A stretch of 32,904 nucleotides of DNA from a virus. Taxonomy: Duplodnaviria; Heunggongvirae; Uroviricota; Caudoviricetes. Position numbers and translations under genes: made by a program. Under the pieces are notes generated by a model, which saw only the letters and a program-made list of their open reading frames with translations, did no database searches and was not told the origin of the DNA. The stretch lies in IMG/VR virus record IMGVR_UViG_2778261269_000003, positions 1 to 32,904 of that record, one strand, 5' to 3'. Positions 2,534-32,904 of this stretch are shown here, piece by piece; within the stretch, counting starts at the first letter, position 1; every line of letters begins with the position of its first letter.

Positions 2534-2706
2534 GACGACAGCGACGAAGTATCACCGACATAATCTGCGAAAACTGCAAATACCTTCCAACGAAGCGCTC
2601 CAGAAATAAACGCAAGCCAATCCCAAAAGAATCTGACGTAAAAACCTTCAACTACACGGCTCACCTGTGGGATATCCGGTGGCTAAGACATCGTGCGAGG
2701 AAATGA
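2530..2706 (+). CDS. ninE: NinE protein
   Basis: Translation [27 protein letters not shown]... recalled as lambda NinE; ATGA overlap with the methyltransferase stop. Confidence 0.82.
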
Positions 2707-3110
2707 CAATGCTTTTAATTCAACCTGGATTTGGCCTTAGCATCAAAAAAGGGCACATGTTTGGCGAGAAAGAGTCTCAACGAAAAATGGTGTCTATCCG
2801 GTTGCCATTTATCAGTATTTATTGGCTAAACAGGGAGGCAACAAATTATTGGTATACCTGCGCCAGAGCAGCATTTAACGACCCTGAGTGGTTTGTAGAA
2901 AACCATCACGCTGTTCGTCAGGCAAAGAGAAAGGCCAATACGACATACATGAAGGCGTATCGAAAAGCATGGACAGAACACCGCGATCGATACCAACAAG
3001 ACATGGAAAAGCTTGAATCAGAAAACATGGAATTAAGACGAAAGCTCGGTGAAGCAAAACGAGACATTGATGCTTACAAGCGACTTTTTAATGGTGAAAG
3101 CCATGCTTAG
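2703..3110 (+). CDS. Hypothetical protein inserted between ninE and ninF (coiled-coil C-terminus)
   Basis: 135 aa ORF from ATG 2703 (ATGA overlap with ninE stop), ends 8 bp into ninF; no recognisable family. Confidence 0.4.
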
Positions 3111-3279
3111 CCCATCCCAAACCCTTCAATACCAGAAAGAAAGCGTCGAACGAGCTTTAACGTGCGCTAACTGCGGTCAGAAACTGCATGTGCTGGAAGT
3201 TCACGTGTGCTCCGATTGCTGCGCAGAACTGATGAGCGATCCGAATAGCTCAATGTACGAGGAAGAAGACGATGAGTGA
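3103..3279 (+). CDS. ninF: NinF protein
   Basis: Translation from ATG 3103 [40 protein letters not shown]... recalled as lambda NinF (Cys-rich). Confidence 0.8.
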   Translation: MLSPSQTLQYQKESVERALTCANCGQKLHVLEVHVCSDCCAELMSDPNSSMYEEEDDE

Positions 3280-3484
3280 TTACCTGAAATGGTATCTCTG
3301 CCACCGCTGGTTAATTAAGTTTGCTGTAAAAGACTGGATGACAGCGGATGCCAACAAGCTTAAGCAAAGAAAAGACTATTACTACGCCAGAATGAAGGAA
3401 AACTACTGCTCAATTCGCACTCGCATATTTATTAAAAAAGACCTTCAGTCAATTCTTCAATTGCGAGGGAAGGTAAATGGCTAA
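3272..3484 (+). CDS. Small hypothetical protein
   Basis: 70 aa ORF overlapping ninF stop and the downstream start; AT-rich; no recognisable motif. Confidence 0.3.
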   Translation: MSDYLKWYLCHRWLIKFAVKDWMTADANKLKQRKDYYYARMKENYCSIRTRIFIKKDLQSILQLRGKVNG

Positions 3485-23362: not shown

Positions 23363-23741
23363 TTTCATCAGCAAGGTGATCGGCGTGCCTTGGGCTAACC
23401 GGGCCTGCTCGTTCGAGAAAGTCGACTGCTGGGGATTGTGCGTGCTGTATTACCGGCATGTTCTCGGCATTGAGTTGCATCAGACGCCGGATTACGAAGC
23501 CGGCGAGGACTTCTTCACCTGCTATCAGGGTGACGTCGTTTTCTGGCGCCAGGTCGATAAACCAGTTGAAGGTGGGATATTCGTCGGGTACTGCGGCTCG
23601 CAACCGGCACACGTTGGCCTGGTGCTTAACCGGCAGGCGCTGCACTCGCGGGGCGAGAACGGCAGTGTGCGCATGGACTCGTTACTGGTTATTCAGAGGG
23701 CTTTCACTAAAGTGGAGTATTTTTCTTATGGCGCTGGTTGA
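23325..23741 (+). CDS. Tail-associated NlpC/P60-family cysteine peptidase
   Basis: 138 aa with candidate catalytic Cys in VDCWGLCVLYY and downstream His in PAHVGLVL. Confidence 0.62.
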   Translation: MTLRNTPGYSTSDFISKVIGVPWANRACSFEKVDCWGLCVLYYRHVLGIELHQTPDYEAGEDFFTCYQGDVVFWRQVDKPVEGGIFVGYCGSQPAHVGLVLNRQALHSRGENGSVRMDSLLVIQRAFTKVEYFSYGAG

Positions 23742-26205
23742 GATATCGAATTTTCCAGGAACGCCTAAGCTGCGTTGCAGGGTGCCAAACGGTACCCTTT
23801 TTTATGACTGGCTGGCGGCCAATGATGCCACCTTTCACAGTGATCTGCTAATCGTCCGCAACGGCGTGAGGTTAAGTGATGATGATGAGCTGGCGTTTGA
23901 ACTGAGCGAACTGGACAACATCCAGATATTCGACCAGCCAAAAGGTATCGTCAGCGATATCCTGAGCCCGATCTTCAAAGTTGTAGGCGCTGTGTTTTCC
24001 TTCCTGGCTCCTAAGCCTGCAATTGCTAACAACGGTGGCAACACCGTCGACTCACCGAATAATAGCCTGACTGGGCAGACAAATACCGCCAGAGTATACA
24101 AAGCGAAGCCTGACATTTATGGTCAGGTCAGATCGTTTCCCGACTTGATTCAGGAATCGATGTTTGAATATGTGCGCCAGAGCGAGAACGATGGTGGCCT
24201 GAAATATGTCACTGAGTGGATGTGTATTGGTATAGGTAAGTATGACTATGAGTCTGTTCGTTACTCAGAGTCGAGTCTTGGATCGATGGCCGGTGCTGAA
24301 TACCAGTTTTATCAGCCTGGTGAAGTGATACCGACTATTAACGAGGGGTATTCGTTCGACGATGTTGACGGGCAGGAGATGCCAGGGCCCAACGAAAGCG
24401 ACAATTTCCCAGTAGAATCTGCGACGGCAAATACCGTAGTAAGTGGTGATTATGCTGGAGGCCAGATAGCGATGAAAATCGTCAAGCAGGCTGAGTTCGA
24501 CTACTTCATGGGGCTCGTGCTACCGCATTCTGTCACCTTTACAATTAATGTCACCTACAACACTACATCGGGCAGCGTTACAGAAGATGTGCTTTTCTCA
24601 GGTACGCTGATTTCTGCTGTAGAGAGTGATGATGGTTCCTTGATAGACCATGTTCAGTGGTACACGTTCACCATGACAGATTTGCAGGGACCGCCAACAG
24701 TTCCATCTACTGCCACCATTAACACGACAAAATTCATTCTCAATGATAACGAGGCGCTTGTTGTGGGGCCTTTCTTCTCGCCTGTTGAGTCAACTGAGCT
24801 GTGGCTGCATACACAGTCATCACTTGGTGGCGGTAACTGGACGGACTGGACGGTAACAATCTGGAAAATTGACGACGATTACAATCAGATCCCCGGAACT
24901 CAGCAGGCCTTCACCTATCATCAGGGAACGCCGCATAAGTCGACCAGCGAAGTGTTTTATCGCACCGATAAAATAATTCCAGCAGGAGGGTTTGGTAAAT
25001 ACGCCATCAACTTCCAGCGTACAAACAACTCCAATGATGCCTCTATCCTGAAGGTCGAAGAGATTCACGCCGTTAATATTCGCAGCAATGTGGTTCACCC
25101 GACTGATACGCTTGTTCGTGTGAAGGTCAGGGCGACAGAGAATGCACTGGGTAGCCGTGACCGCAAATACAACGCCATGGTGACTCGCCATACCATCAGT
25201 TACAACCTGACGACACAGTCCGTGGATTACACATTACGGCCGTCTCGGTCGTTTGCTGACGCGGTGGCGCATACCTGGCTTGTAATGGGAGGCCAACCAG
25301 AAAACAGTATTGATCTGTACGGCCTGTACTCTATCGTGGAAAGCCTGCCTGATGAGCGGCTGGGCTACTTCGACTACACGTTTGACGATGAGAACGACTC
25401 ACTTGGTGACAGGGTGCAGGCGATCTGCAATGCAGCATCCGTCATGGCGTACTGGGATGACGGTGTGCTGACATTCACCCGCGACCAGAAGGTTGATTAT
25501 CCTGCTGCTGTATTCAACCGGGCCAACATGAAGACAGACGAGTACAAAATTACGTACGAAGCCACTCTTCCCGGAGGTTACGACGGCGTTCAGGTCTCCT
25601 ACGTTCATCCGACTACGAATAACAAGACGTACATCAACTACCGCGTTCTGAACGGCGTTATCGTCGAGCAGGAAGCTGAGAACCCAAACAAGCTTGAGAT
25701 AGTAGGATTCCGTAACGAGTACCAGGCTCGTGAGCGAGCGTTACGCGAAACAAAGCGGCTTATCTACTCCCGGGTGAAGATGAATGCCAAGGTATTTGAG
25801 GACGGGATTATCCAGGTGGGCAGCGTTATCCAGATGCCGGATATCTACGACAGCAACCAGCAGCAGGGTTACATCACCGGCCGCACTGGGAATAACTTCG
25901 ATACGAGCGAACCAATCAAGTTTACCGGAACGATGTATGTTCTGGTTACTGACAGCTTGGGCAATCCAACACTGCGTTATCCGGCAACGGCCCGCAGCGA
26001 CACGAAATATGGATTTACTGCAGCAATACCCACCATTCAGCTCAACATATGGAACGGAGACACTGTGCAGCTCCCGTCGCGCTATCTCATAGCGACCGTA
26101 GAAGAGTTAGATAGTCAATTATGGACAGTCAACAGCATCAAACCGAACACTGACAATACGGTATCCCTGATCGTCGCAGAGTACAGCGACTCAGTCTACG
26201 GATAG
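23728..26205 (+). CDS. Large tail tip / host specificity protein
   Basis: 825 aa from ATG 23728 (GGAG upstream); follows NlpC/P60 gene as in lambda-J-type and GTA-type tail tip modules. Confidence 0.65.
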   Translation: MALVEISNFPGTPKLRCRVPNGTLFYDWLAANDATFHSDLLIVRNGVRLSDDDELAFELSELDNIQIFDQPKGIVSDILSPIFKVVGAVFSFLAPKPAIANNGGNTVDSPNNSLTGQTNTARVYKAKPDIYGQVRSFPDLIQESMFEYVRQSENDGGLKYVTEWMCIGIGKYDYESVRYSESSLGSMAGAEYQFYQPGEVIPTINEGYSFDDVDGQEMPGPNESDNFPVESATANTVVSGDYAGGQIAMKIVKQAEFDYFMGLVLPHSVTFTINVTYNTTSGSVTEDVLFSGTLISAVESDDGSLIDHVQWYTFTMTDLQGPPTVPSTATINTTKFILNDNEALVVGPFFSPVESTELWLHTQSSLGGGNWTDWTVTIWKIDDDYNQIPGTQQAFTYHQGTPHKSTSEVFYRTDKIIPAGGFGKYAINFQRTNNSNDASILKVEEIHAVNIRSNVVHPTDTLVRVKVRATENALGSRDRKYNAMVTRHTISYNLTTQSVDYTLRPSRSFADAVAHTWLVMGGQPENSIDLYGLYSIVESLPDERLGYFDYTFDDENDSLGDRVQAICNAASVMAYWDDGVLTFTRDQKVDYPAAVFNRANMKTDEYKITYEATLPGGYDGVQVSYVHPTTNNKTYINYRVLNGVIVEQEAENPNKLEIVGFRNEYQARERALRETKRLIYSRVKMNAKVFEDGIIQVGSVIQMPDIYDSNQQQGYITGRTGNNFDTSEPIKFTGTMYVLVTDSLGNPTLRYPATARSDTKYGFTAAIPTIQLNIWNGDTVQLPSRYLIATVEELDSQLWTVNSIKPNTDNTVSLIVAEYSDSVYG

Positions 26206-26226
26206 AACCTAATCCGAATATCACAA

Positions 26227-26251
26227 CCCGGCCACTGAGCCGGTTTTTTTA
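26227..26251 (+). terminator. Rho-independent terminator between tail tip and fibre genes
   Basis: CCGGC-CACTGA-GCCGG followed by seven T. Confidence 0.55.
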
Positions 26252-26261
26252 TGGAAAAATT

Positions 26262-28637
26262 ATGGCCACCCAACCAACAAATAACGCAGTGCCAAGCGAA
26301 TCACCCCGTGATCTGAAGTTTAACGCGGGGAAAATTGATGAGTTCGTTACGTCTGAGAATCATGATTATGTTGACAGATTTGGCAATAAACATCGTACAA
26401 TTGAAGGCATAAATTACGATTCGAACCAGGCAATTCTGAATTATGGCTATATCACGAAGGATTCTTTTGAAGATGGCAGCACCATTAGCCTTGCTAACGA
26501 GTGCTTACGCTGGAAGAGCAACGGCGAGTACTACAGATGGGATGGGTCACTCCCCAAAGTAGTTCCCCCTGGCTCTACTCCGGAAGGCACTGGTGGGCTA
26601 GGGAAAGGTAAGTGGGTTGGTGTCGGAGATGCATCTTTGCGATCGGCAATGAAGAATGAGAATGGTACTGATTTAATTAATGGAACAAAATCTGTTGTTG
26701 GGTCAGTTACAAGATCACTAACAGATATGTTGTCAGACAAGATATCCGTGCGGGATTTTGGCGGAATTGATGACTATGATGGAACAAATGCATCAACATG
26801 CACTAACAACAGAATTCCATTTCAACGGTATTTTGAATATCTTAATTCAATTGGCGGTGGCGATCTAAATATTCCACGTAAATTAACCGGGAAATATTTT
26901 ATTAGTGGTGATGACCACACACAAGTTACCTCTAAAGTTCGTTTAAATACTGACGAAGGTGTATCTATACATCTTGATTTCTCTGGAGGTGCTTCAAATA
27001 CTCCATTTGCCAATCTCGATTTAAGGGCATCGAGCCAGATAAAGATTGAGTATGTTAATTTTGGTTATCCGTCATATGTTGGTGGTAGCGTAGACACGCC
27101 ATTTAGTGACTCTTTGCAAACCATGAACAATGGTGATGGTATTTACACGGTGCCAGAAGTACTATCAGGTAGTGATTTTAAAGTCATTTCATTGGGAAAT
27201 AGCTCTGTTGAAATACCACCGTTATCAACATCCGGAGATACAATCTCTTTTAATGGCGGAGGGGTTCCAACTGCAGCAGTCATCAGCGTGACTCCTGGTG
27301 ACGAAATTATGGCGTTAATAGGCTCGAATTCGCTTGGGGGAATTATTGCCGGTGTCGTCACGGTTAATGGCTATGCTTATGTTTCTCAAGATACTTCTAG
27401 TGGTAATATTACCCTTGCAGAAGGCACGATAGGGCAGCCAAATATACTAACTGGTCTTAATTATGCTCTCATGGATCAGCTAAGAGATCGGTTTGACCGT
27501 GCTATCATAACAGTAAAAATTACTTCATCGAGAACCTTTACCGTTATGGCTAACGGTCTGGCAATATGCAGTCATACCACCAGGTCTAGTATTCTTGGCG
27601 CTTGTCTTGGTACTTCCGACATTAATAGTATTGTGAATGTATCACAAATGTCTCGAGTTAGAGGGCATAGTTTTTCCGGGTCCAAGCCTTTGAGGATATT
27701 GGTTTGCGGAGATTCAATTACCGATCAAAATAATCAATATTCATGGGCCAAATATCTCCAGATGCAGTTGGGCTCAGCTGGCGTTAACATTGCAGAGATA
27801 AATAATTTAGCAGTGGCTGGACAGACAGCGGCCCAACAACTCAGCATCCTGAAAACTGTTGGTGTAGGATATGATATCTGCCTGATACAGGTTGGTGTAA
27901 ATGATGTTCAGTTACAGACTCCGGTAGCATCCTTCATTTCGACAATAAATGAAATGGTCACTTACGCGAAGGGGATTGGAGCATTTCCGATTGTTGGTGT
28001 ACCCACGGCTTTTTATTCTCTTGCAGAGGCGAATGCTAATGGGCAAACGGGAGGGCAAAACACATCAAACAACTCTTCGATAGGGATGTACCGATCGCTT
28101 CTTATTCGTGCTGTTGCAGCAGCTGGCGGAATTGTTAACCTTGAGCCTATGAAAGGACATGGAGCTATGACGGCTAAGTGGCTGTCACTGAAACCGTATG
28201 CCGTCAGCGATAGCATCGTGCTGGACAATATTCACCCCACTCCATATGGGTCGATGCTCCTGGCACAAGGATATGCGCGATGCATTCTTGGATGGCTTAC
28301 TAGGCCTGACATGACACCAACGGAAAGCTTTGAATTTATTCCTAGCGGGTGGCTTAGCCCAGGATTTGGCGAAACATCGATCCCTAAAATTAAAGGAAGG
28401 GAGTTCTCTGGGTTGATAAGTCTGCATGCAACAAATATCAATGATGGTTCAGTGGCCTTCACTTTGCCACCATCATTTAAAGTAGATAACGTTAAGATGC
28501 TTGCGGTGACAGGGACAAACAGTTCCGGGCTTCCGGTAGGTGTTTGTAATTTATATGTTGGGACAGACGGGAAGTGTTACTTCTTTAATATTCCAGAAGG
28601 AGTTACCCAAGTATCAATGGACGGTGTGGTTTTATAG
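26262..28637 (+). CDS. Tail fibre / tailspike with embedded SGNH (GDSL) esterase domain
   Basis: 791 aa; SGNH blocks ILVCGDSITDQ (GDS at 27708-27716), IQVGVNDV, and LDNIHPT (DxxH at 28224-28235). Confidence 0.78.
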   Translation: MATQPTNNAVPSESPRDLKFNAGKIDEFVTSENHDYVDRFGNKHRTIEGINYDSNQAILNYGYITKDSFEDGSTISLANECLRWKSNGEYYRWDGSLPKVVPPGSTPEGTGGLGKGKWVGVGDASLRSAMKNENGTDLINGTKSVVGSVTRSLTDMLSDKISVRDFGGIDDYDGTNASTCTNNRIPFQRYFEYLNSIGGGDLNIPRKLTGKYFISGDDHTQVTSKVRLNTDEGVSIHLDFSGGASNTPFANLDLRASSQIKIEYVNFGYPSYVGGSVDTPFSDSLQTMNNGDGIYTVPEVLSGSDFKVISLGNSSVEIPPLSTSGDTISFNGGGVPTAAVISVTPGDEIMALIGSNSLGGIIAGVVTVNGYAYVSQDTSSGNITLAEGTIGQPNILTGLNYALMDQLRDRFDRAIITVKITSSRTFTVMANGLAICSHTTRSSILGACLGTSDINSIVNVSQMSRVRGHSFSGSKPLRILVCGDSITDQNNQYSWAKYLQMQLGSAGVNIAEINNLAVAGQTAAQQLSILKTVGVGYDICLIQVGVNDVQLQTPVASFISTINEMVTYAKGIGAFPIVGVPTAFYSLAEANANGQTGGQNTSNNSSIGMYRSLLIRAVAAAGGIVNLEPMKGHGAMTAKWLSLKPYAVSDSIVLDNIHPTPYGSMLLAQGYARCILGWLTRPDMTPTESFEFIPSGWLSPGFGETSIPKIKGREFSGLISLHATNINDGSVAFTLPPSFKVDNVKMLAVTGTNSSGLPVGVCNLYVGTDGKCYFFNIPEGVTQVSMDGVVL

Positions 28638-28641
28638 TTCC

Positions 28642-28665
28642 GTGTGGGAGGTCTCCCTCCCACAC
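28642..28665. terminator. Bidirectional hairpin between convergent fibre and acylation-cassette genes
   Basis: Perfect 10-bp GC-rich stem GTGTGGGAGG / CCTCCCACAC with 4-nt loop TCTC; weak T-tract on + side. Confidence 0.5.
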
Positions 28666-28671
28666 TCACTA

Positions 28672-29751
28672 TTAATTGTAAGGGGTTTCTCTTTCCATTT
28701 CTAAAACTATGGCTCTGAAATTTCTATTAAACTCATAACCAGGTTTATTATGTAACTCTGCATTTATGCAGTCTCCTAGAAGAGAACTTCTGATTCTAGC
28801 ACCATACCCATTGGTATGATAAGCAGAGTCCATAAATAATTTTCCTCCAAGATTAGACGCGCTTGGTGCGCAAATAACGTTAATACCAGCAACAGAAAGC
28901 AAACCCTTAAGTTTCATTAACGACTGCATGGTTTGTCCATTATCAGTGTCAAACCCCGGATTTCGCATCGTAACAGGCCATGTAATAAATAATTTCCCAC
29001 CTTTATTAGAAACAAAATTATTTATTTCCTTGAGTGTTGTATATGTATGTTCAGATATTTTAGGAATGTCTGAGTTATATGTAAATGTGCCATTATACAC
29101 AGAATCGTAAACAGTTTTACCGTCAATAAAAACATTGATGTCACCGTTTTTATTTAGACTTTTATAACTGTACCCATTATATTCACCATTGGTAGAGTTA
29201 AGATGATTGATGACATCACTCAACGGTGAAACCAGGCCTTTATCTTCAGCATTAAATCCTTCAACTAACCTTTTGGGGCTAACATTCATCATGAACTTTA
29301 TACGGTTATAAATGTTGATGCTTGATAGGTAATCCTGGCCCCACCCCAATATATTATTAACAAACCAATCAGTTGGTGCTTCCGTACGTGTGTAGTACTC
29401 ATACTCAAGCGGCATTACAACGATATCACCATTTTTAAAATGCTTTTTTAATTGATAAAAATGATAGTTTATATCTAGCTCTGCATGCGTTGCAATATTT
29501 ACAACTGGAAGTGATGTTTTATGGGAAATAATTTCACTATTTATAGAAAATAAGCTATTCGACCCGCTAGAGATTATTATTTTTTTCCCATTTATCCTGT
29601 CAGCGGCAACGCCTTTAAAATCAATTACGTTCTTTAGCCACCACTCACCTACAACCTGCTTTCCTTCCTGCATTTTGAAAGCATAAATAAACGTCCCAGC
29701 GGCAAATGCAAGTATTGCTAAGAATATAGAGAAGCTGAATTTATAATTCAC
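28672..29751 (-). CDS. DltD/AlgJ-like membrane-anchored partner protein of MBOAT acyltransferase
   Basis: 359 aa with N-terminal TM anchor, C-terminal FMDSAYHTNGYG resembling the DltD/AlgJ D..H..G.G motif; GTG start 9 nt after MBOAT stop with AAGGG RBS. Confidence 0.55.
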   Translation of the reverse strand: MNYKFSFSIFLAILAFAAGTFIYAFKMQEGKQVVGEWWLKNVIDFKGVAADRINGKKIIISSGSNSLFSINSEIISHKTSLPVVNIATHAELDINYHFYQLKKHFKNGDIVVMPLEYEYYTRTEAPTDWFVNNILGWGQDYLSSINIYNRIKFMMNVSPKRLVEGFNAEDKGLVSPLSDVINHLNSTNGEYNGYSYKSLNKNGDINVFIDGKTVYDSVYNGTFTYNSDIPKISEHTYTTLKEINNFVSNKGGKLFITWPVTMRNPGFDTDNGQTMQSLMKLKGLLSVAGINVICAPSASNLGGKLFMDSAYHTNGYGARIRSSLLGDCINAELHNKPGYEFNRNFRAIVLEMERETPYN

Positions 29752-29760
29752 TGTTCGCCC

Positions 29761-31203
29761 TTAAAAATTGAAGTAAATAAAGGATCCGGGAGCCGCCCCA
29801 CCCAAGGAAGCAGTCACTGCAATGCAAACGCCAAAGGCACACAGGCATGGAGCAAGCAGATTCCACGCTATACCACTCTTATGTTCTTTGGTCATCTCCA
29901 TGAAAACATTAGAATTTACATTAATTAAGCACGTCATAATGGCAATGGCGCAAACAGCTATCATATAGAAACCACCTTTCGATGCCTCATAGAGGAATGA
30001 GTCCGCAAAAGGTTGAGCATATTTAAATCCGGAAACCAAAGAATCGTAACCAGCAAACATTTTCTTTAGCAAACTAAAAGCATCATTTAAGTTATCTGTT
30101 CTGAAGAAAATCCAGGTGATATTCACGTAATTGAATGTTATAAACCAACCTACAACGCTCGGCATGCGAAAGCCATTTTGTGACCAATACCTGTGAATGA
30201 CAAGCCCAGCCCCGTGTAAAGCGCCCCACGCCAAAAAATTCCATCCAGCTCCATGCCAGAAACCGCCGATCAAAAACGTCAAAAACAGGTTTAGATATGT
30301 GCGTAATACACCATTTCGGTTTCCGCCAAGAGGAATGTAGACATAATTCCTGAGCCACGTGGAAAGGGTAATGTGCCAGCGTCTCCAGAAATCTTGAAGG
30401 TCTGTTGCTATGTATGGTGAATTGAAGTTGATAGGCAGCACAACGCCAAACAGAAGGGCCGAGCCAATCGCCATGTCAGTATATCCGGAGAAATCAAAGT
30501 ATAACTGGATACTGTATGAGAGGCTGGTTATCCATGCCTCCAAAGCACCAAGGGCTGAGATATTTGCATAACCTTGATCCGCTATAGAGCCAAAATATGA
30601 AGACAAGACAACTTTTTTGAATATTCCGACACTAAATATAAATACTGCGGGAACGAAATATTTCCCGAAATAATTATCCCTTGAGTTGAGTTGGTTTGTA
30701 ATTACATCATAATTTGTTATCGGGCCAGAGATGAGCTTAGGGAAAAACAAAATGTAGCAGCAATAATTTAATATTGAAATGTTAGATATCTGCTTTCTAT
30801 ACAAACTAACTGATAAAGAAATCTGCTGAAATGTATAGAAGCTTATGGCTAACGGCGCAATAACATTCATGTGGCCTATATTTAGGTTGAAAATACTAGA
30901 TATGTTACTTGCAAAGAAGTTGCAGTATTTAAAATAACCAAGAGATGCCACGTTAAATATAACTGATAATGCTACATATAATTTTGTCTTTTCAGATTTC
31001 ATCATTGTTAATATTGCGTAGTTTATCAGCATCGATATCAACAAAAGAGGCAAGAAATTAAATGTGAAAAAAGTATAGAAATACAGGCTAGCGCAACAAA
31101 TCCACACCTTGGAGAGAGCAATGTTAAATTTTTTCAGGAAAAGGAATATCAATACCACCAAAGGTAAAAACATTACAGAATATTCTAACGAGTTAAATAA
31201 CAT
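29761..31203 (-). CDS. MBOAT-family membrane-bound O-acyltransferase (AlgI/DltB/PatA-like)
   Basis: 480 aa polytopic membrane protein with the MBOAT His motif FWRRWHITLSTWLRNYVYIPLGGNR; very AT-rich. Confidence 0.8.
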   Translation of the reverse strand: MLFNSLEYSVMFLPLVVLIFLFLKKFNIALSKVWICCASLYFYTFFTFNFLPLLLISMLINYAILTMMKSEKTKLYVALSVIFNVASLGYFKYCNFFASNISSIFNLNIGHMNVIAPLAISFYTFQQISLSVSLYRKQISNISILNYCCYILFFPKLISGPITNYDVITNQLNSRDNYFGKYFVPAVFIFSVGIFKKVVLSSYFGSIADQGYANISALGALEAWITSLSYSIQLYFDFSGYTDMAIGSALLFGVVLPINFNSPYIATDLQDFWRRWHITLSTWLRNYVYIPLGGNRNGVLRTYLNLFLTFLIGGFWHGAGWNFLAWGALHGAGLVIHRYWSQNGFRMPSVVGWFITFNYVNITWIFFRTDNLNDAFSLLKKMFAGYDSLVSGFKYAQPFADSFLYEASKGGFYMIAVCAIAIMTCLINVNSNVFMEMTKEHKSGIAWNLLAPCLCAFGVCIAVTASLGGAAPGSFIYFNF

Positions 31204-31749
31204 GCCTTATCCCTTATATAAGTTATCAATCAAGTTTAAACCGCTATCAGAACACCAAATTCGCTTATCCATTCATGAACCTCTTCCACGCGCAATCTGC
31301 AACCACACTTAACATCCATGGTATTAACTTTAATTCCTAAAATTAGTGACATGGAGTTTACCACTACAGAGAAATCTGATCATTACTTGATCGAAAGAAG
31401 GGAACGTGGTGCTGTGCGTATACACAGCAATGGTCGGAGAAGCATCTCTGATCCCATATGCTCGCTCTTTGGTGGTTTGCAGAATGGAAGGCGAGTTGAG
31501 GATAAGGCGATATCGTAAATCATCAACTCCTCACCTGGAGGAATTGCAGACGGGGAGGCGTAAAAGATACCAGTGCACGATGACGGAACTAGCCCGGATG
31601 CGATCTTTGGGATGTTCACCTACATCATCCACGATGTTCGCTCTGACGAGTTCGACGACTTTCTGGTGATGTGATGGGGCATGGATGAGGAAAACATTAT
31701 CGAAAACAACCCAAAACAGATGGAGTTGAGAGGTGTCTTGCACCATTTC
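31204..31749. other. Non-coding region between conversion cassette and integrase; candidate attP and promoter of the reverse-strand cassette
   Basis: About 550 bp with only short mutually overlapping ORFs; lies at the 3' end of int as attP does in lambda; no tRNA-like T-arm seen. Confidence 0.3.
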
Positions 31750-32904
31750 TCACAACTTACCATCAAGCCAGTCTGCCCACCACTGCATCATCTCCCTGCG
31801 CTTATCCATGTACTGAGCGTGATTGTATATCCCACGCACAGATCCGCCGTTTGCATGTGCCAGTTGCACTTCAATAGCGTCAGCAGGCCATTCGTGCTCG
31901 TTCATAATCGTGCTGAATTCATGCCTGAATCCGTGACCGCTTTCCAGACCCTCATAGCCGATTTGTTTGATCACAAGCAGTACCGCGTTCTCGCAGATTG
32001 GCTTCTTCTTATCGTTGCGCCCGGCAAAAACAAACTCTGAGACTGGTTTGGTGATGGAGCTTAGCGTAGTGAGAAGTTCAACTACCTGGTCTGACATAGG
32101 AACCACATGAATTTTGCGTCCTTTCATCACACTGGCGTCGATGGTGATAATCCTATTTTCAAAATCGACGTTCTTCCATAGCATGGAACGAAGCTCTTTC
32201 GTTCTTAGGGCTGTGTAGCGTAAAACTTTGGTCGCAATGAGCGATACGATACTTCCTGAAAATGTTGCCAGTGCTTTGTTGAATGCCGGGATCTGGTCTG
32301 CAGGAAGAAACGGGAAGTTCTTCTTGCGGTATCCCTTCATGGCGTCAGCAAGGTCAGGTGCCGGGTTATATTTAGCCCTTCCGGTGACAATAGCGTAACG
32401 GAAAACCTCGCCGCATCTTCTGCGTGCTTTGTTGGCTCGTTCCATTGCACCGCGATCTTCAAACCTGCGGATTACTTCCAGCAGTTGCATCGGCTCAATA
32501 TCCTGAATTTCAAGGCCGCCAATGATAGGTAAAATGTCGTCGTCAAACATTTTGGCAAGTTCAGTTGCATACCCTACTGACCATACTTGCTTCTTGTGCT
32601 CGTACCATTCCTTGTAAATCGCACTAAAGGAATTGTTGTTAGACGAAGCCTTTTTCGCCTTTACAGGATCGATGCCAACCGAGATGTCTTTCCTCGCAGT
32701 CCATGCTTTATCCCTTGCCTCCTGCAAAGTCATAAGCGGATATTTTCCGACGGTCAGGATTTTCTCCTTACCGTCAATCTTGTAGCGAAGCTGCCATACC
32801 TTTTTCCCTGACACAGGGACATAAAGGTACAGGCCATTACCATCGAGAAGGCGGTATGGTTTTTCTTTCGGCTTTGCTGCTTCAATCTGCTTAACGGTGA
32901 GCAT
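31750..32904 (-). CDS. int: Tyrosine site-specific integrase (P4-type N-terminal arm-binding domain)
   Basis: 384 aa; start codon is the last three bases of the window; N-terminus ...KPKEKPYRLLDGNGLYLYV..., C-terminus HGFRHEFST...RGIYNHAQY with conserved His/Arg/Tyr residues. Confidence 0.9.
   Translation of the reverse strand: MLTVKQIEAAKPKEKPYRLLDGNGLYLYVPVSGKKVWQLRYKIDGKEKILTVGKYPLMTLQEARDKAWTARKDISVGIDPVKAKKASSNNNSFSAIYKEWYEHKKQVWSVGYATELAKMFDDDILPIIGGLEIQDIEPMQLLEVIRRFEDRGAMERANKARRRCGEVFRYAIVTGRAKYNPAPDLADAMKGYRKKNFPFLPADQIPAFNKALATFSGSIVSLIATKVLRYTALRTKELRSMLWKNVDFENRIITIDASVMKGRKIHVVPMSDQVVELLTTLSSITKPVSEFVFAGRNDKKKPICENAVLLVIKQIGYEGLESGHGFRHEFSTIMNEHEWPADAIEVQLAHANGGSVRGIYNHAQYMDKRREMMQWWADWLDGKL

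Follow-up and report, generated by a model that had tools for sequence, protein, structure and literature searches.

An AT-rich tailspike and acyltransferase block in an E. coli prophage is a horizontally exchanged module and a probable host-range and lysogenic-conversion cassette

The right end of a 32,904-nucleotide (nt) stretch of viral DNA (Caudoviricetes; IMG/VR record IMGVR_UViG_2778261269_000003, positions 1 to 32,904; hereafter the window) carries an AT-rich block, at positions 26262-31203, with three genes. A tailspike gene on the forward strand converges with a reverse-strand pair that encodes a membrane-bound O-acyltransferase (MBOAT) and a membrane-anchored protein of SGNH fold, referred to here as the partner. 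Its deviant composition, its discrete junctions and its presence in unrelated contexts support the block as a horizontally exchanged mosaic module. We consider it probable, at roughly 70%, that it is a host-range and lysogenic-conversion cassette that O-acylates a surface glycan, the acyl group probably being acetyl and the glycan probably the O-antigen. An earlier note, made by a model that saw only the letters and their open reading frames, had proposed a horizontally acquired module of this kind, based on base composition judged by eye.

The limits of the exchanged segment were established by nucleotide comparison. On the left, blastn homology to relatives of the phage backbone (Enterobacter phage CobraSix and the E. 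coli prophages L011 and L013) stops at 26408, and homology to loci that share the cassette (L001 and L095) begins at 26430 with 91-97% nt identity. The identity profile to these cassette carriers leaps at this junction from 0.53-0.56 to 0.97. L095 is a viral contig with another backbone and a different tailspike anchor, and it shares the cassette at 91-97% nt identity. L001 is an IS1-flanked chromosomal remnant of the cassette, located between yiiG and frvB in E. coli strains YZ22MPE6 and LF4-1. The cassette was further detected in L004, L014 and L015, the last of these a Cedecea locus recovered by genome scan. The right junction lies at ~31750-31760, at the stop codon of the integrase gene. 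L094, an IMG/VR contig that otherwise matches the window, shares ~100% identity with it between 24357 and ~31757 and ~70% farther on, and the 99% identity to K-12 IntS begins exactly where L094 diverges. A region that was colinear and equally diverged from 26.4 to 31.75 kb across the backbone relatives is contradicted by this mapping.

Relatives carry other genes in the same slot. L011-L013 have unrelated tailspike C-termini in this position (a different GDSL esterase, a head-binding type and a GDPD type), and each tailspike is followed by a reverse-strand AT3 acyltransferase. In the K-12 prophage CPS-53, gtrABS lies between its tail-fibre genes and the same IntS (order argW-intS-gtrA-gtrB-gtrS). 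We conclude that modules are exchanged at the fibre because the same backbone carries unrelated C-termini, the same cassette occurs in other contexts and the junctions are sharp (26408/26430 and ~31757). The horizontal acquisition suggested in the earlier note is thus borne out. Its proposal of exchange at the fibre is likewise supported, but the recent breakpoint falls at codons 50-56 and not near residue 120.

The compositional signal is strong. The block has a G+C content (GC) of 0.402 compared with 0.532 for positions 1-26261, where none of 427 windows of equal length falls under 0.490 (mean 0.537, standard deviation 0.023), and block and upstream DNA also differ in non-overlapping 500-bp windows (Mann-Whitney p = 3e-6). 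In 1-kb sliding windows GC is 0.53-0.58 across the head and tail genes at 8-23 kb, 0.431 at 26001-27000, lowest (0.355-0.368) at 28.5-31.5 kb, and back to 0.489 at 31501-32500 in the integrase gene. Synonymous codon choice in the three cassette genes departs from that of a reference set of 19 structural genes (5948 codons), with GC at third codon positions (GC3) of 0.31-0.42 versus 0.645 (chi2 610.8, 41 degrees of freedom, p ~1e-102). CTG accounts for 19 of 142 leucine codons in the cassette genes versus 228 of 438 in the structural genes, and AGA/AGG are the main arginine codons of the former. The sliding-window and codon-usage comparisons that the earlier note had proposed as a check therefore both reveal large differences, and its impression of an AT-rich block with AT-rich codon choice was correct. 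Its right-hand limit has to be moved, since low GC overshoots 31203 by ~150 bp into the region upstream of the MBOAT gene (0.337 at 31050-31349). The suggestion that composition changes only further into the fibre gene did not hold: GC is already 0.437 at 26100-26399, at the start of the gene, with an anchor of intermediate value (0.470 for the first 400 nt, 0.427 for the remainder).

Low GC might be thought to reflect the amino acids of membrane proteins, or local mutational bias, rather than a separate origin, as the products of two of the genes are hydrophobic or anchored in the membrane and have a high content of Ile, Phe, Leu, Asn and Lys. The soluble tailspike is AT-rich too, however, the shift extends strongly to GC3 and synonymous codons, and the comparative data show the cassette being exchanged at sharp junctions. 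The codon test and the junction mapping refute amino-acid bias as the sole cause, and we regard this explanation as hardly credible. Other occupants of the slot are also AT-rich, with GC of 0.335-0.345 for the AT3 genes, 0.276 for gtrS and 0.39-0.48 for the tailspike C-termini of the relatives, and the MBOAT/partner pair is AT-rich against its flanks in every enterobacterial host compared. Because low GC is common to this slot in all relatives, we interpret it as a signature of the cassette class and not of one recent import. Such a signal, together with modular exchange at tailspikes, is textbook behavior and ordinary for modules of this type. A low-GC donor lineage was considered, and the similarity to Campylobacterota homologues (35-38% identity) is insufficient to name a donor. 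A second, smaller GC dip (0.39-0.44) at 2667-3484 on the forward strand coincides with two early-region open reading frames of 147 and 70 residues, neither of which has a Pfam match.

The role in host range and conversion that the earlier note had proposed gains support from gene content, an MBOAT with an SGNH partner, and from position, as gtrABS resides beside the same IntS in K-12. Predicted glycan-modifying genes lie between the tailspike gene and intS, in a slot where they can be exchanged for AT3 or gtrABS, which is the position of a conversion module.

The tailspike consists of a virion anchor, a variable beta-rich centre, an SGNH esterase domain and a C-terminal beta domain. Pfam matches were obtained to Tail_spike_N (PF18668, residues 65-123, 1.2e-17) and Lipase_GDSL_2 (residues 482-663, 7.5e-13), and PHROG 13362 covers the full length. 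The first 120-160 residues are 54-67% identical to those of relatives whose C-termini are unrelated, and at the protein level the anchor reaches residue ~134-160. The conserved N-terminal anchor of ~120 residues recognized in the earlier note is also evident from the match of residues 1-134 to gp13 of PDB entry 9occ (E 2e-47). In 38 tailspike homologues, drawn from E. coli, Proteus, Hafnia, Enterobacter, Ewingella, Citrobacter and metagenomes, the invariant positions are GDS 483-485, G520, GxND 545-548 and DxxH 655-658 (here DNIH). An AlphaFold2 (AF2) model (mean predicted local distance difference test score, pLDDT, 78) retrieved with Foldseek the N-domains of the CBA120 tailspike proteins, G7C gp63.1 (4qnl, E 4e-11, 869 columns) and carbohydrate esterases that combine a beta-sandwich with an SGNH domain. 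The N-domain and the intact SGNH motifs, together with the model, classify the protein as a predicted esterase tailspike of the G7C gp63.1 type. G7C gp63.1 is known to deacetylate O-antigen, and by analogy the tailspike in the window would be an active esterase. The same receptor-binding part stands behind at least five N-terminal anchors (PF18668, PF09008, PF03906, PF27114 and PF12571). SGNH receptor-binding proteins from temperate phages, among them Klebsiella prophages, have proved to be enzymatically active as esterases, and prophages commonly carry acetyltransferases (PMC13123978).

The first protein of the reverse-strand pair is a clear member of the MBOAT family, with 122.7 bits (2.7e-35) to PF03062 over residues 40-362 against a cut-off of 27. 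It aligns to the DltB structures 8jem and 6bug (E 4e-30), and its motifs RWHITLS (His277) and GFWHGAGW (His317) match RWHMSLS and GFWHGITW of DltB 8jem. These motif histidines are catalytic in DltB. A crude Kyte-Doolittle scan located five to six strongly hydrophobic segments. In the otherwise near-identical contig L094, identity dips to 0.95 within the MBOAT gene (~30657-30757 of the window) and the tblastn match spans 310 residues in a single frame; the L094 copy probably carries an indel or frameshift, while that of the window is intact.

The partner could be assigned by structure. Its AF2 model is confident (pLDDT 91) and consists of a single N-terminal transmembrane helix (residues 4-27) followed by an SGNH fold. 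Structural matches include DltD and PatB, the longest alignments being to DltD. The block I serine and block V histidine are present, with G63-S64-N65 and H312 unchanged across 28 homologues, whereas the block V aspartate (D308 here) is an asparagine in many of them, such that the full triad is not universal. By sequence, no Pfam match to GDSL, DltD, ALGX or DHHW was found, and a profile search against PDB sequences gave nothing relevant. Neither MBOAT nor partner has a PHROGs family, and none of the three cassette proteins corresponds to a defence-system model in PADLOC. The partner family is large, with 4,787 representatives at 50% clustering (E<=1e-3). Of 96 loci fetched from many phyla, 76 have an MBOAT gene directly upstream of the partner gene and in the same orientation. 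MBOAT followed by partner is thus an ancient gene pair. We also observed a conserved C-terminal extension of ~120 residues in five partner homologues (P0013, P0018, P0019, P0020 and P0025; columns ~420-544 of alignment A1, …YLYKSNGKDYKLI.H…AYGFWT.GA..W). The homologues that bear it are non-enterobacterial and ~490 residues long, and one is from Arcobacter.

The resemblance to DltB and DltD raises the question of whether the pair might transfer a non-acetyl group, such as D-alanyl or another acyl group from a carrier protein, to an envelope polymer. DltB provides the best matches of the MBOAT among solved structures and NCBIfam models, and the partner shares with DltD its longest structural alignments and an N-terminal membrane anchor. 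The MBOAT scores only 168.9 against the 375 cut-off of the DltB equivalog TIGR04091, however, and there is no carrier-protein or ligase gene (dltA, dltC or dltX-like) within 28672-31749, the operon comprising just two genes between the tailspike gene and a umuD relic. The closest phage MBOATs are annotated as AlgI-like. We consider a Dlt-type transfer very improbable.

A different acceptor, peptidoglycan, is suggested by the design of the pair. An MBOAT with a separate SGNH protein is the established arrangement of AlgI/AlgX and of PatA/PatB, and peptidoglycan was, as of a 2022 review, the only acceptor for which MBOAT and AT3 proteins were known to share a function (PMC9558356). PatA/PatB-like O-acetylation would protect the wall of the lysogen from enzymes of the lysozyme type, those of superinfecting phages among them, and would have no connection with the tailspike receptor. 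Most non-phage relatives of the pair lie outside obvious polysaccharide clusters (L017, L020 and L022), which is compatible with this proposal, although in one Cellvibrio metagenome-assembled genome the pair is inside a surface-polysaccharide cluster. PatB is not the best structural match of the partner and has no sequence similarity to it. Moreover, the partner diverges fast (53-63% identity, compared with 67-90% for the MBOAT), which is unexpected for an invariant acceptor, and surface glycans are indicated both by where the pair lies and by the AT3 or gtr genes that take its place in relatives. We judge modification of peptidoglycan to be improbable.

In the conversion scheme that we favor, the receptor-binding part of the tailspike is fused at around codon 50-56 to a backbone-specific anchor. 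The tailspike would most likely act in the manner of G7C gp63.1, with the virion binding an O-acetylated surface polysaccharide and stripping its acetyl groups. The convergent two-gene operon would be expressed from the prophage. Its MBOAT would move an acyl group through the inner membrane, acetyl being the likeliest candidate, and the partner, anchored in that membrane and facing the periplasm, would place the group on a surface glycan via Ser64 and His312, with the O-antigen as the most likely acceptor. The outcome would be a lysogenic conversion that alters serotype and phage susceptibility.

Of 11 loci in which identity of the partner reaches at least 50%, 10 carry a convergent esterase tailspike, and further cases are found in L001, L103-L105 and L110. 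More distant pairs adjoin a P22-type or Mu-type fibre (L008-L010). In loci with a diverged tailspike and partner, the anchor retains 66-92% identity and the MBOAT 67-90%, compared with 31-63% for the central region of the tailspike and 53-63% for the partner. Sliding identity places the strongest divergence at tailspike residues ~200-440 and partner residues ~160-280. Locus by locus, the identities of tailspike C-terminus and partner are 100/100, 97/95, 61/62, 63/60, 32/53 and 31/54. This is the pattern expected if the two diverging parts read the glycan, and it fits a division of the cassette into homology arms (anchor and MBOAT) and putative glycan-reading parts (tailspike centre and partner).

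A more elaborate proposal is that the pair installs exactly the O-acyl mark that its own esterase tailspike recognizes and removes, as a lock and key. The private mark would exclude competitors that need unmodified glycan, while the lineage itself would keep access, and removal of the mark would be confined to virions that inherited the esterase along with the pair; the esterase would also free progeny from trapping on lysogen debris, and the cassette would create and control its own receptor state. The convergent arrangement in 10 of 11 loci and the way in which tailspike and partner identities track each other, beside a conserved MBOAT and anchor, are in favor of this idea. In addition, an independent relative, L011, combines another GDSL tailspike and a non-homologous AT3 in the same slot. 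However, L107, L108 and L109 carry esterase tailspikes with no pair downstream, such that the esterase must have a substrate that is independent of the pair; in L012 and L013 an AT3 gene follows a tailspike that is not an esterase, and co-divergence is equally expected if both proteins read the same host serotype. The coupling is one-directional because these pair-less tailspikes exist, and they rule out that an esterase tailspike must always come with the pair. We regard this matched writing and removal of a mark as unlikely.

Several observations weigh against our interpretation of the block as a conversion cassette. The esterase tailspikes of the pair-less prophages L107-L109 are 45-85% identical to that of the window. 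A tailspike that requires an acetylated receptor, encoded by a prophage that adds acyl groups, would have no obvious exclusion logic. The partner has no Pfam or NCBIfam match at E<=0.01, no PHROG family, and no sequence match to DltD, PatB or AlgX. There is no clear promoter for the pair, with no consensus sigma-70 promoter upstream of the MBOAT gene, and a scan of 28400-31900 for promoter and terminator consensus sequences gave no enrichment over shuffled sequence. Lastly, IS1 has inserted repeatedly, and the cassette may be dispensable or costly. At least three of these insertions are independent: in L001 (8183-8880) the tailspike anchor is truncated, in L103 (13525-14222) IS1 sits in the 9-bp gap between MBOAT and partner genes, and in L110 (9324-10021) the partner is truncated and the MBOAT lost. 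Their recurrence suggests either a preference of IS1 for AT-rich targets or selection against the cassette.

The non-coding parts of the segment contain two candidate regulatory elements. The G+C-rich hairpin between the convergent genes has a perfect 10-bp stem and a folding energy of -21.8 kcal/mol (z -3.65; 0 of 200 shuffled sequences fold as well) and is probably a bidirectional terminator. Upstream of the pair, the motif GATCAAGTAATGATCAGATTT (31373-31393, reverse strand) has two GATC sites at 11-bp spacing, 170-190 nt from the MBOAT start, and is kept in L004 and L096 despite diverged flanks. By analogy with phase-variable gtr operons, it may be the site of a Dam-sensitive regulator. The phage encodes its own Dam methylase at 1946-2533.

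Beyond this region lies a relic of the backbone. A umuD-like S24 peptidase gene, 5'-truncated and frameshifted, was recognized by tblastn with the S24 peptidases of L011 and L013 (two frames, E about 1e-9). The umuC end of the backbone seems to have given way to the IntS integrase module, because relatives keep intact umuD and umuC genes at this place, after their conversion gene. Small open reading frames in 31204-31749 were rejected as genes; their coding sequence is not conserved in relatives, and the region consists of the umuD relic and regulatory DNA.

The window as a whole is the late half of a temperate phage, with a lambda-P-like replication protein, Dam methylase, Q antiterminator, Rz, terminase, head genes and a siphovirus-type tail with TipJ. 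Its backbone shares 80-83% nt identity with CobraSix and the prophages L011-L013, and its tail region 80-92% with CobraSix and E. coli prophages. In E. coli GCA_052766365.1 the same int is followed by tRNA-Arg(CCT), yfdC, mlaA and fadL, which indicates argW as the integration site. With its CobraSix-like tail and lambdoid early genes, the host element is a CobraSix-like, lambdoid E. coli prophage at argW. The mechanically called open reading frame of 915 residues at 23458-26205 (forward strand) over-extends the TipJ-like host specificity gene, which in relatives starts at the equivalent of 23728 (825 residues) and overlaps the end of the NlpC/P60 gene.

Table 1 Positions, strands and assignments of features in and around the AT-rich block (window coordinates).
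Feature	Position	Strand	Description or basis
Head and tail (structural) genes	upstream		GC 0.51-0.61, GC3 0.56-0.74
Tailspike/receptor-binding protein, 791 residues	26262-28637	+	Anchor, variable beta-rich centre (residues ~160-470), SGNH esterase domain, C-terminal beta domain; GC 0.434, GC3 0.365
Conserved virion-anchor region, residues 1-134	26262-26663	+	phmmer to PDB 9occ_G gp13, E 2e-47
Left recombination junction	26408-26430		Tailspike codons ~50-56; blastn homology boundaries
SGNH/GDSL esterase domain, residues 479-666	27696-28259	+	Pfam GDSL matches, invariant blocks
Tailspike Ser485, predicted catalytic	27714-27716	+	
Tailspike His658, predicted catalytic	28233-28235	+	
G+C-rich hairpin GTGTGGGAGG-TCTC-CCTCCCACAC	28642-28665		Within the 34 bp that separate the convergent genes for tailspike and partner
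Membrane-anchored SGNH-fold protein (DltD-like), 359 residues	28672-29751	-	MBOAT partner, putative acyl-to-glycan transferase; GC 0.350, GC3 0.311
Partner His312	28816-28818	-	
Partner Ser64	29560-29562	-	
MBOAT-family membrane O-acyltransferase (AlgI/PatA/DltB-like), 480 residues	29761-31203	-	Pfam PF03062; GC 0.383, GC3 0.424
MBOAT conserved His317	30253-30255	-	
MBOAT conserved His277	30373-30375	-	
AT-rich upstream region of the MBOAT operon	31204-31411	-	Contains motif GATCAAGTAATGATCAGATTT
Backbone relic: LexA-box-like CTGT-N8-ACAG	31412-31427	+	Only such match in the window
Backbone relic: umuD-like S24 peptidase, 5'-truncated, frameshifted	31430-31659	+	tblastn
IntS-type tyrosine integrase (argW)	31750-32904	-	98.8-99% nt identity to K-12 intS; Pfam Phage_integrase, Phage_int_M, Arm-DNA-bind_3

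The type of module is ordinary, and a pairing of an MBOAT with a DltD-like enzyme was not found described for phages. No paper that connects MBOAT proteins with tailspikes or with lysogenic conversion turned up in text searches, and none of 50,697 deposited phage genomes contains the partner. To our knowledge, the enzymes credited so far with serotype-converting O-acetylation by phages are of the AT3 type (Oac, OafA/OafB) or are cytoplasmic transferases (NeuO). If our interpretation is correct, the pair would add another enzymatic route by which phages drive surface variation in Enterobacterales, and a large unnamed family of proteins (~4,800 representatives at 50% identity) would be placed in a functional context for the first time. 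If the pair did write the mark that the tailspike erases, the cassette would be the first conversion system of a phage to rely on an MBOAT together with a DltD-like partner from a hitherto unnamed family. Separating homology arms from specificity parts would help in predicting host range and serotype effects from prophage sequence.

Comparison with known systems places each part of the cassette. The tailspike resembles G7C gp63.1 (PDB 4QNL) in its CBA120/G7C-type N-domain (PF18668; phmmer to 4qnl at residues 92-166), in its complete SGNH catalytic set and in the full-length Foldseek match. It differs in that sequence similarity is confined to the N-terminal domain, the SGNH domains being alike by fold only; the global TM-score of 0.17 is low because the several domains of the monomer model do not superpose together. 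The pair shares with PatA/PatB (peptidoglycan), AlgI/AlgJ/AlgX (alginate), WssH/WssI (cellulose) and DltB/DltD (teichoic acid D-alanylation) the design of an MBOAT followed by a separate extracytoplasmic transferase of SGNH fold, with the conserved MBOAT histidine motifs and a serine and histidine in the partner. Unlike these bacterial two-component O-acyltransferases, it has a partner that by sequence belongs to none of their partner families, comes without accessory genes (algF, dltA, dltC) and is prophage-borne beside a tailspike gene.

The nearest phage precedent is found in the Pseudomonas temperate phages JBD44, JBD88b, JBD94b, DO4 and LC3I3. These carry an MBOAT, gp41, that is 47-50% identical over residues 32/74-382, followed on the same strand by gp40, an SGNH-like protein of ~370 residues, and by a convergent gene for a protein of 720 residues near the tail-fibre gene. 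This last protein, gp39 of JBD44 (L106, 4755-9517), has no Pfam match. Literature searches returned no paper describing the function of JBD44 gp41 or gp40. JBD44 gp40 is of AlgX type (PF16822, 6.7e-13) and, with an hhalign probability of 0.4%, unrelated to the partner in the window, and the host genus and phage backbone also differ. The JBD44 cassette is analogous but independently assembled. In overall architecture, the block corresponds to the conversion modules of Sf6 (the AT3 enzyme Oac), P22 and SfV (GtrABC) and K-12 CPS-53 (IntS-GtrABS), in which AT-rich genes lie between the tailspike or fibre and the integrase, are transcribed opposite to the tail genes and are swapped along with the receptor-binding protein. 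It is set apart from them by its enzymes, an MBOAT and a separate DltD-like SGNH protein in place of an AT3 protein or a Gtr set.

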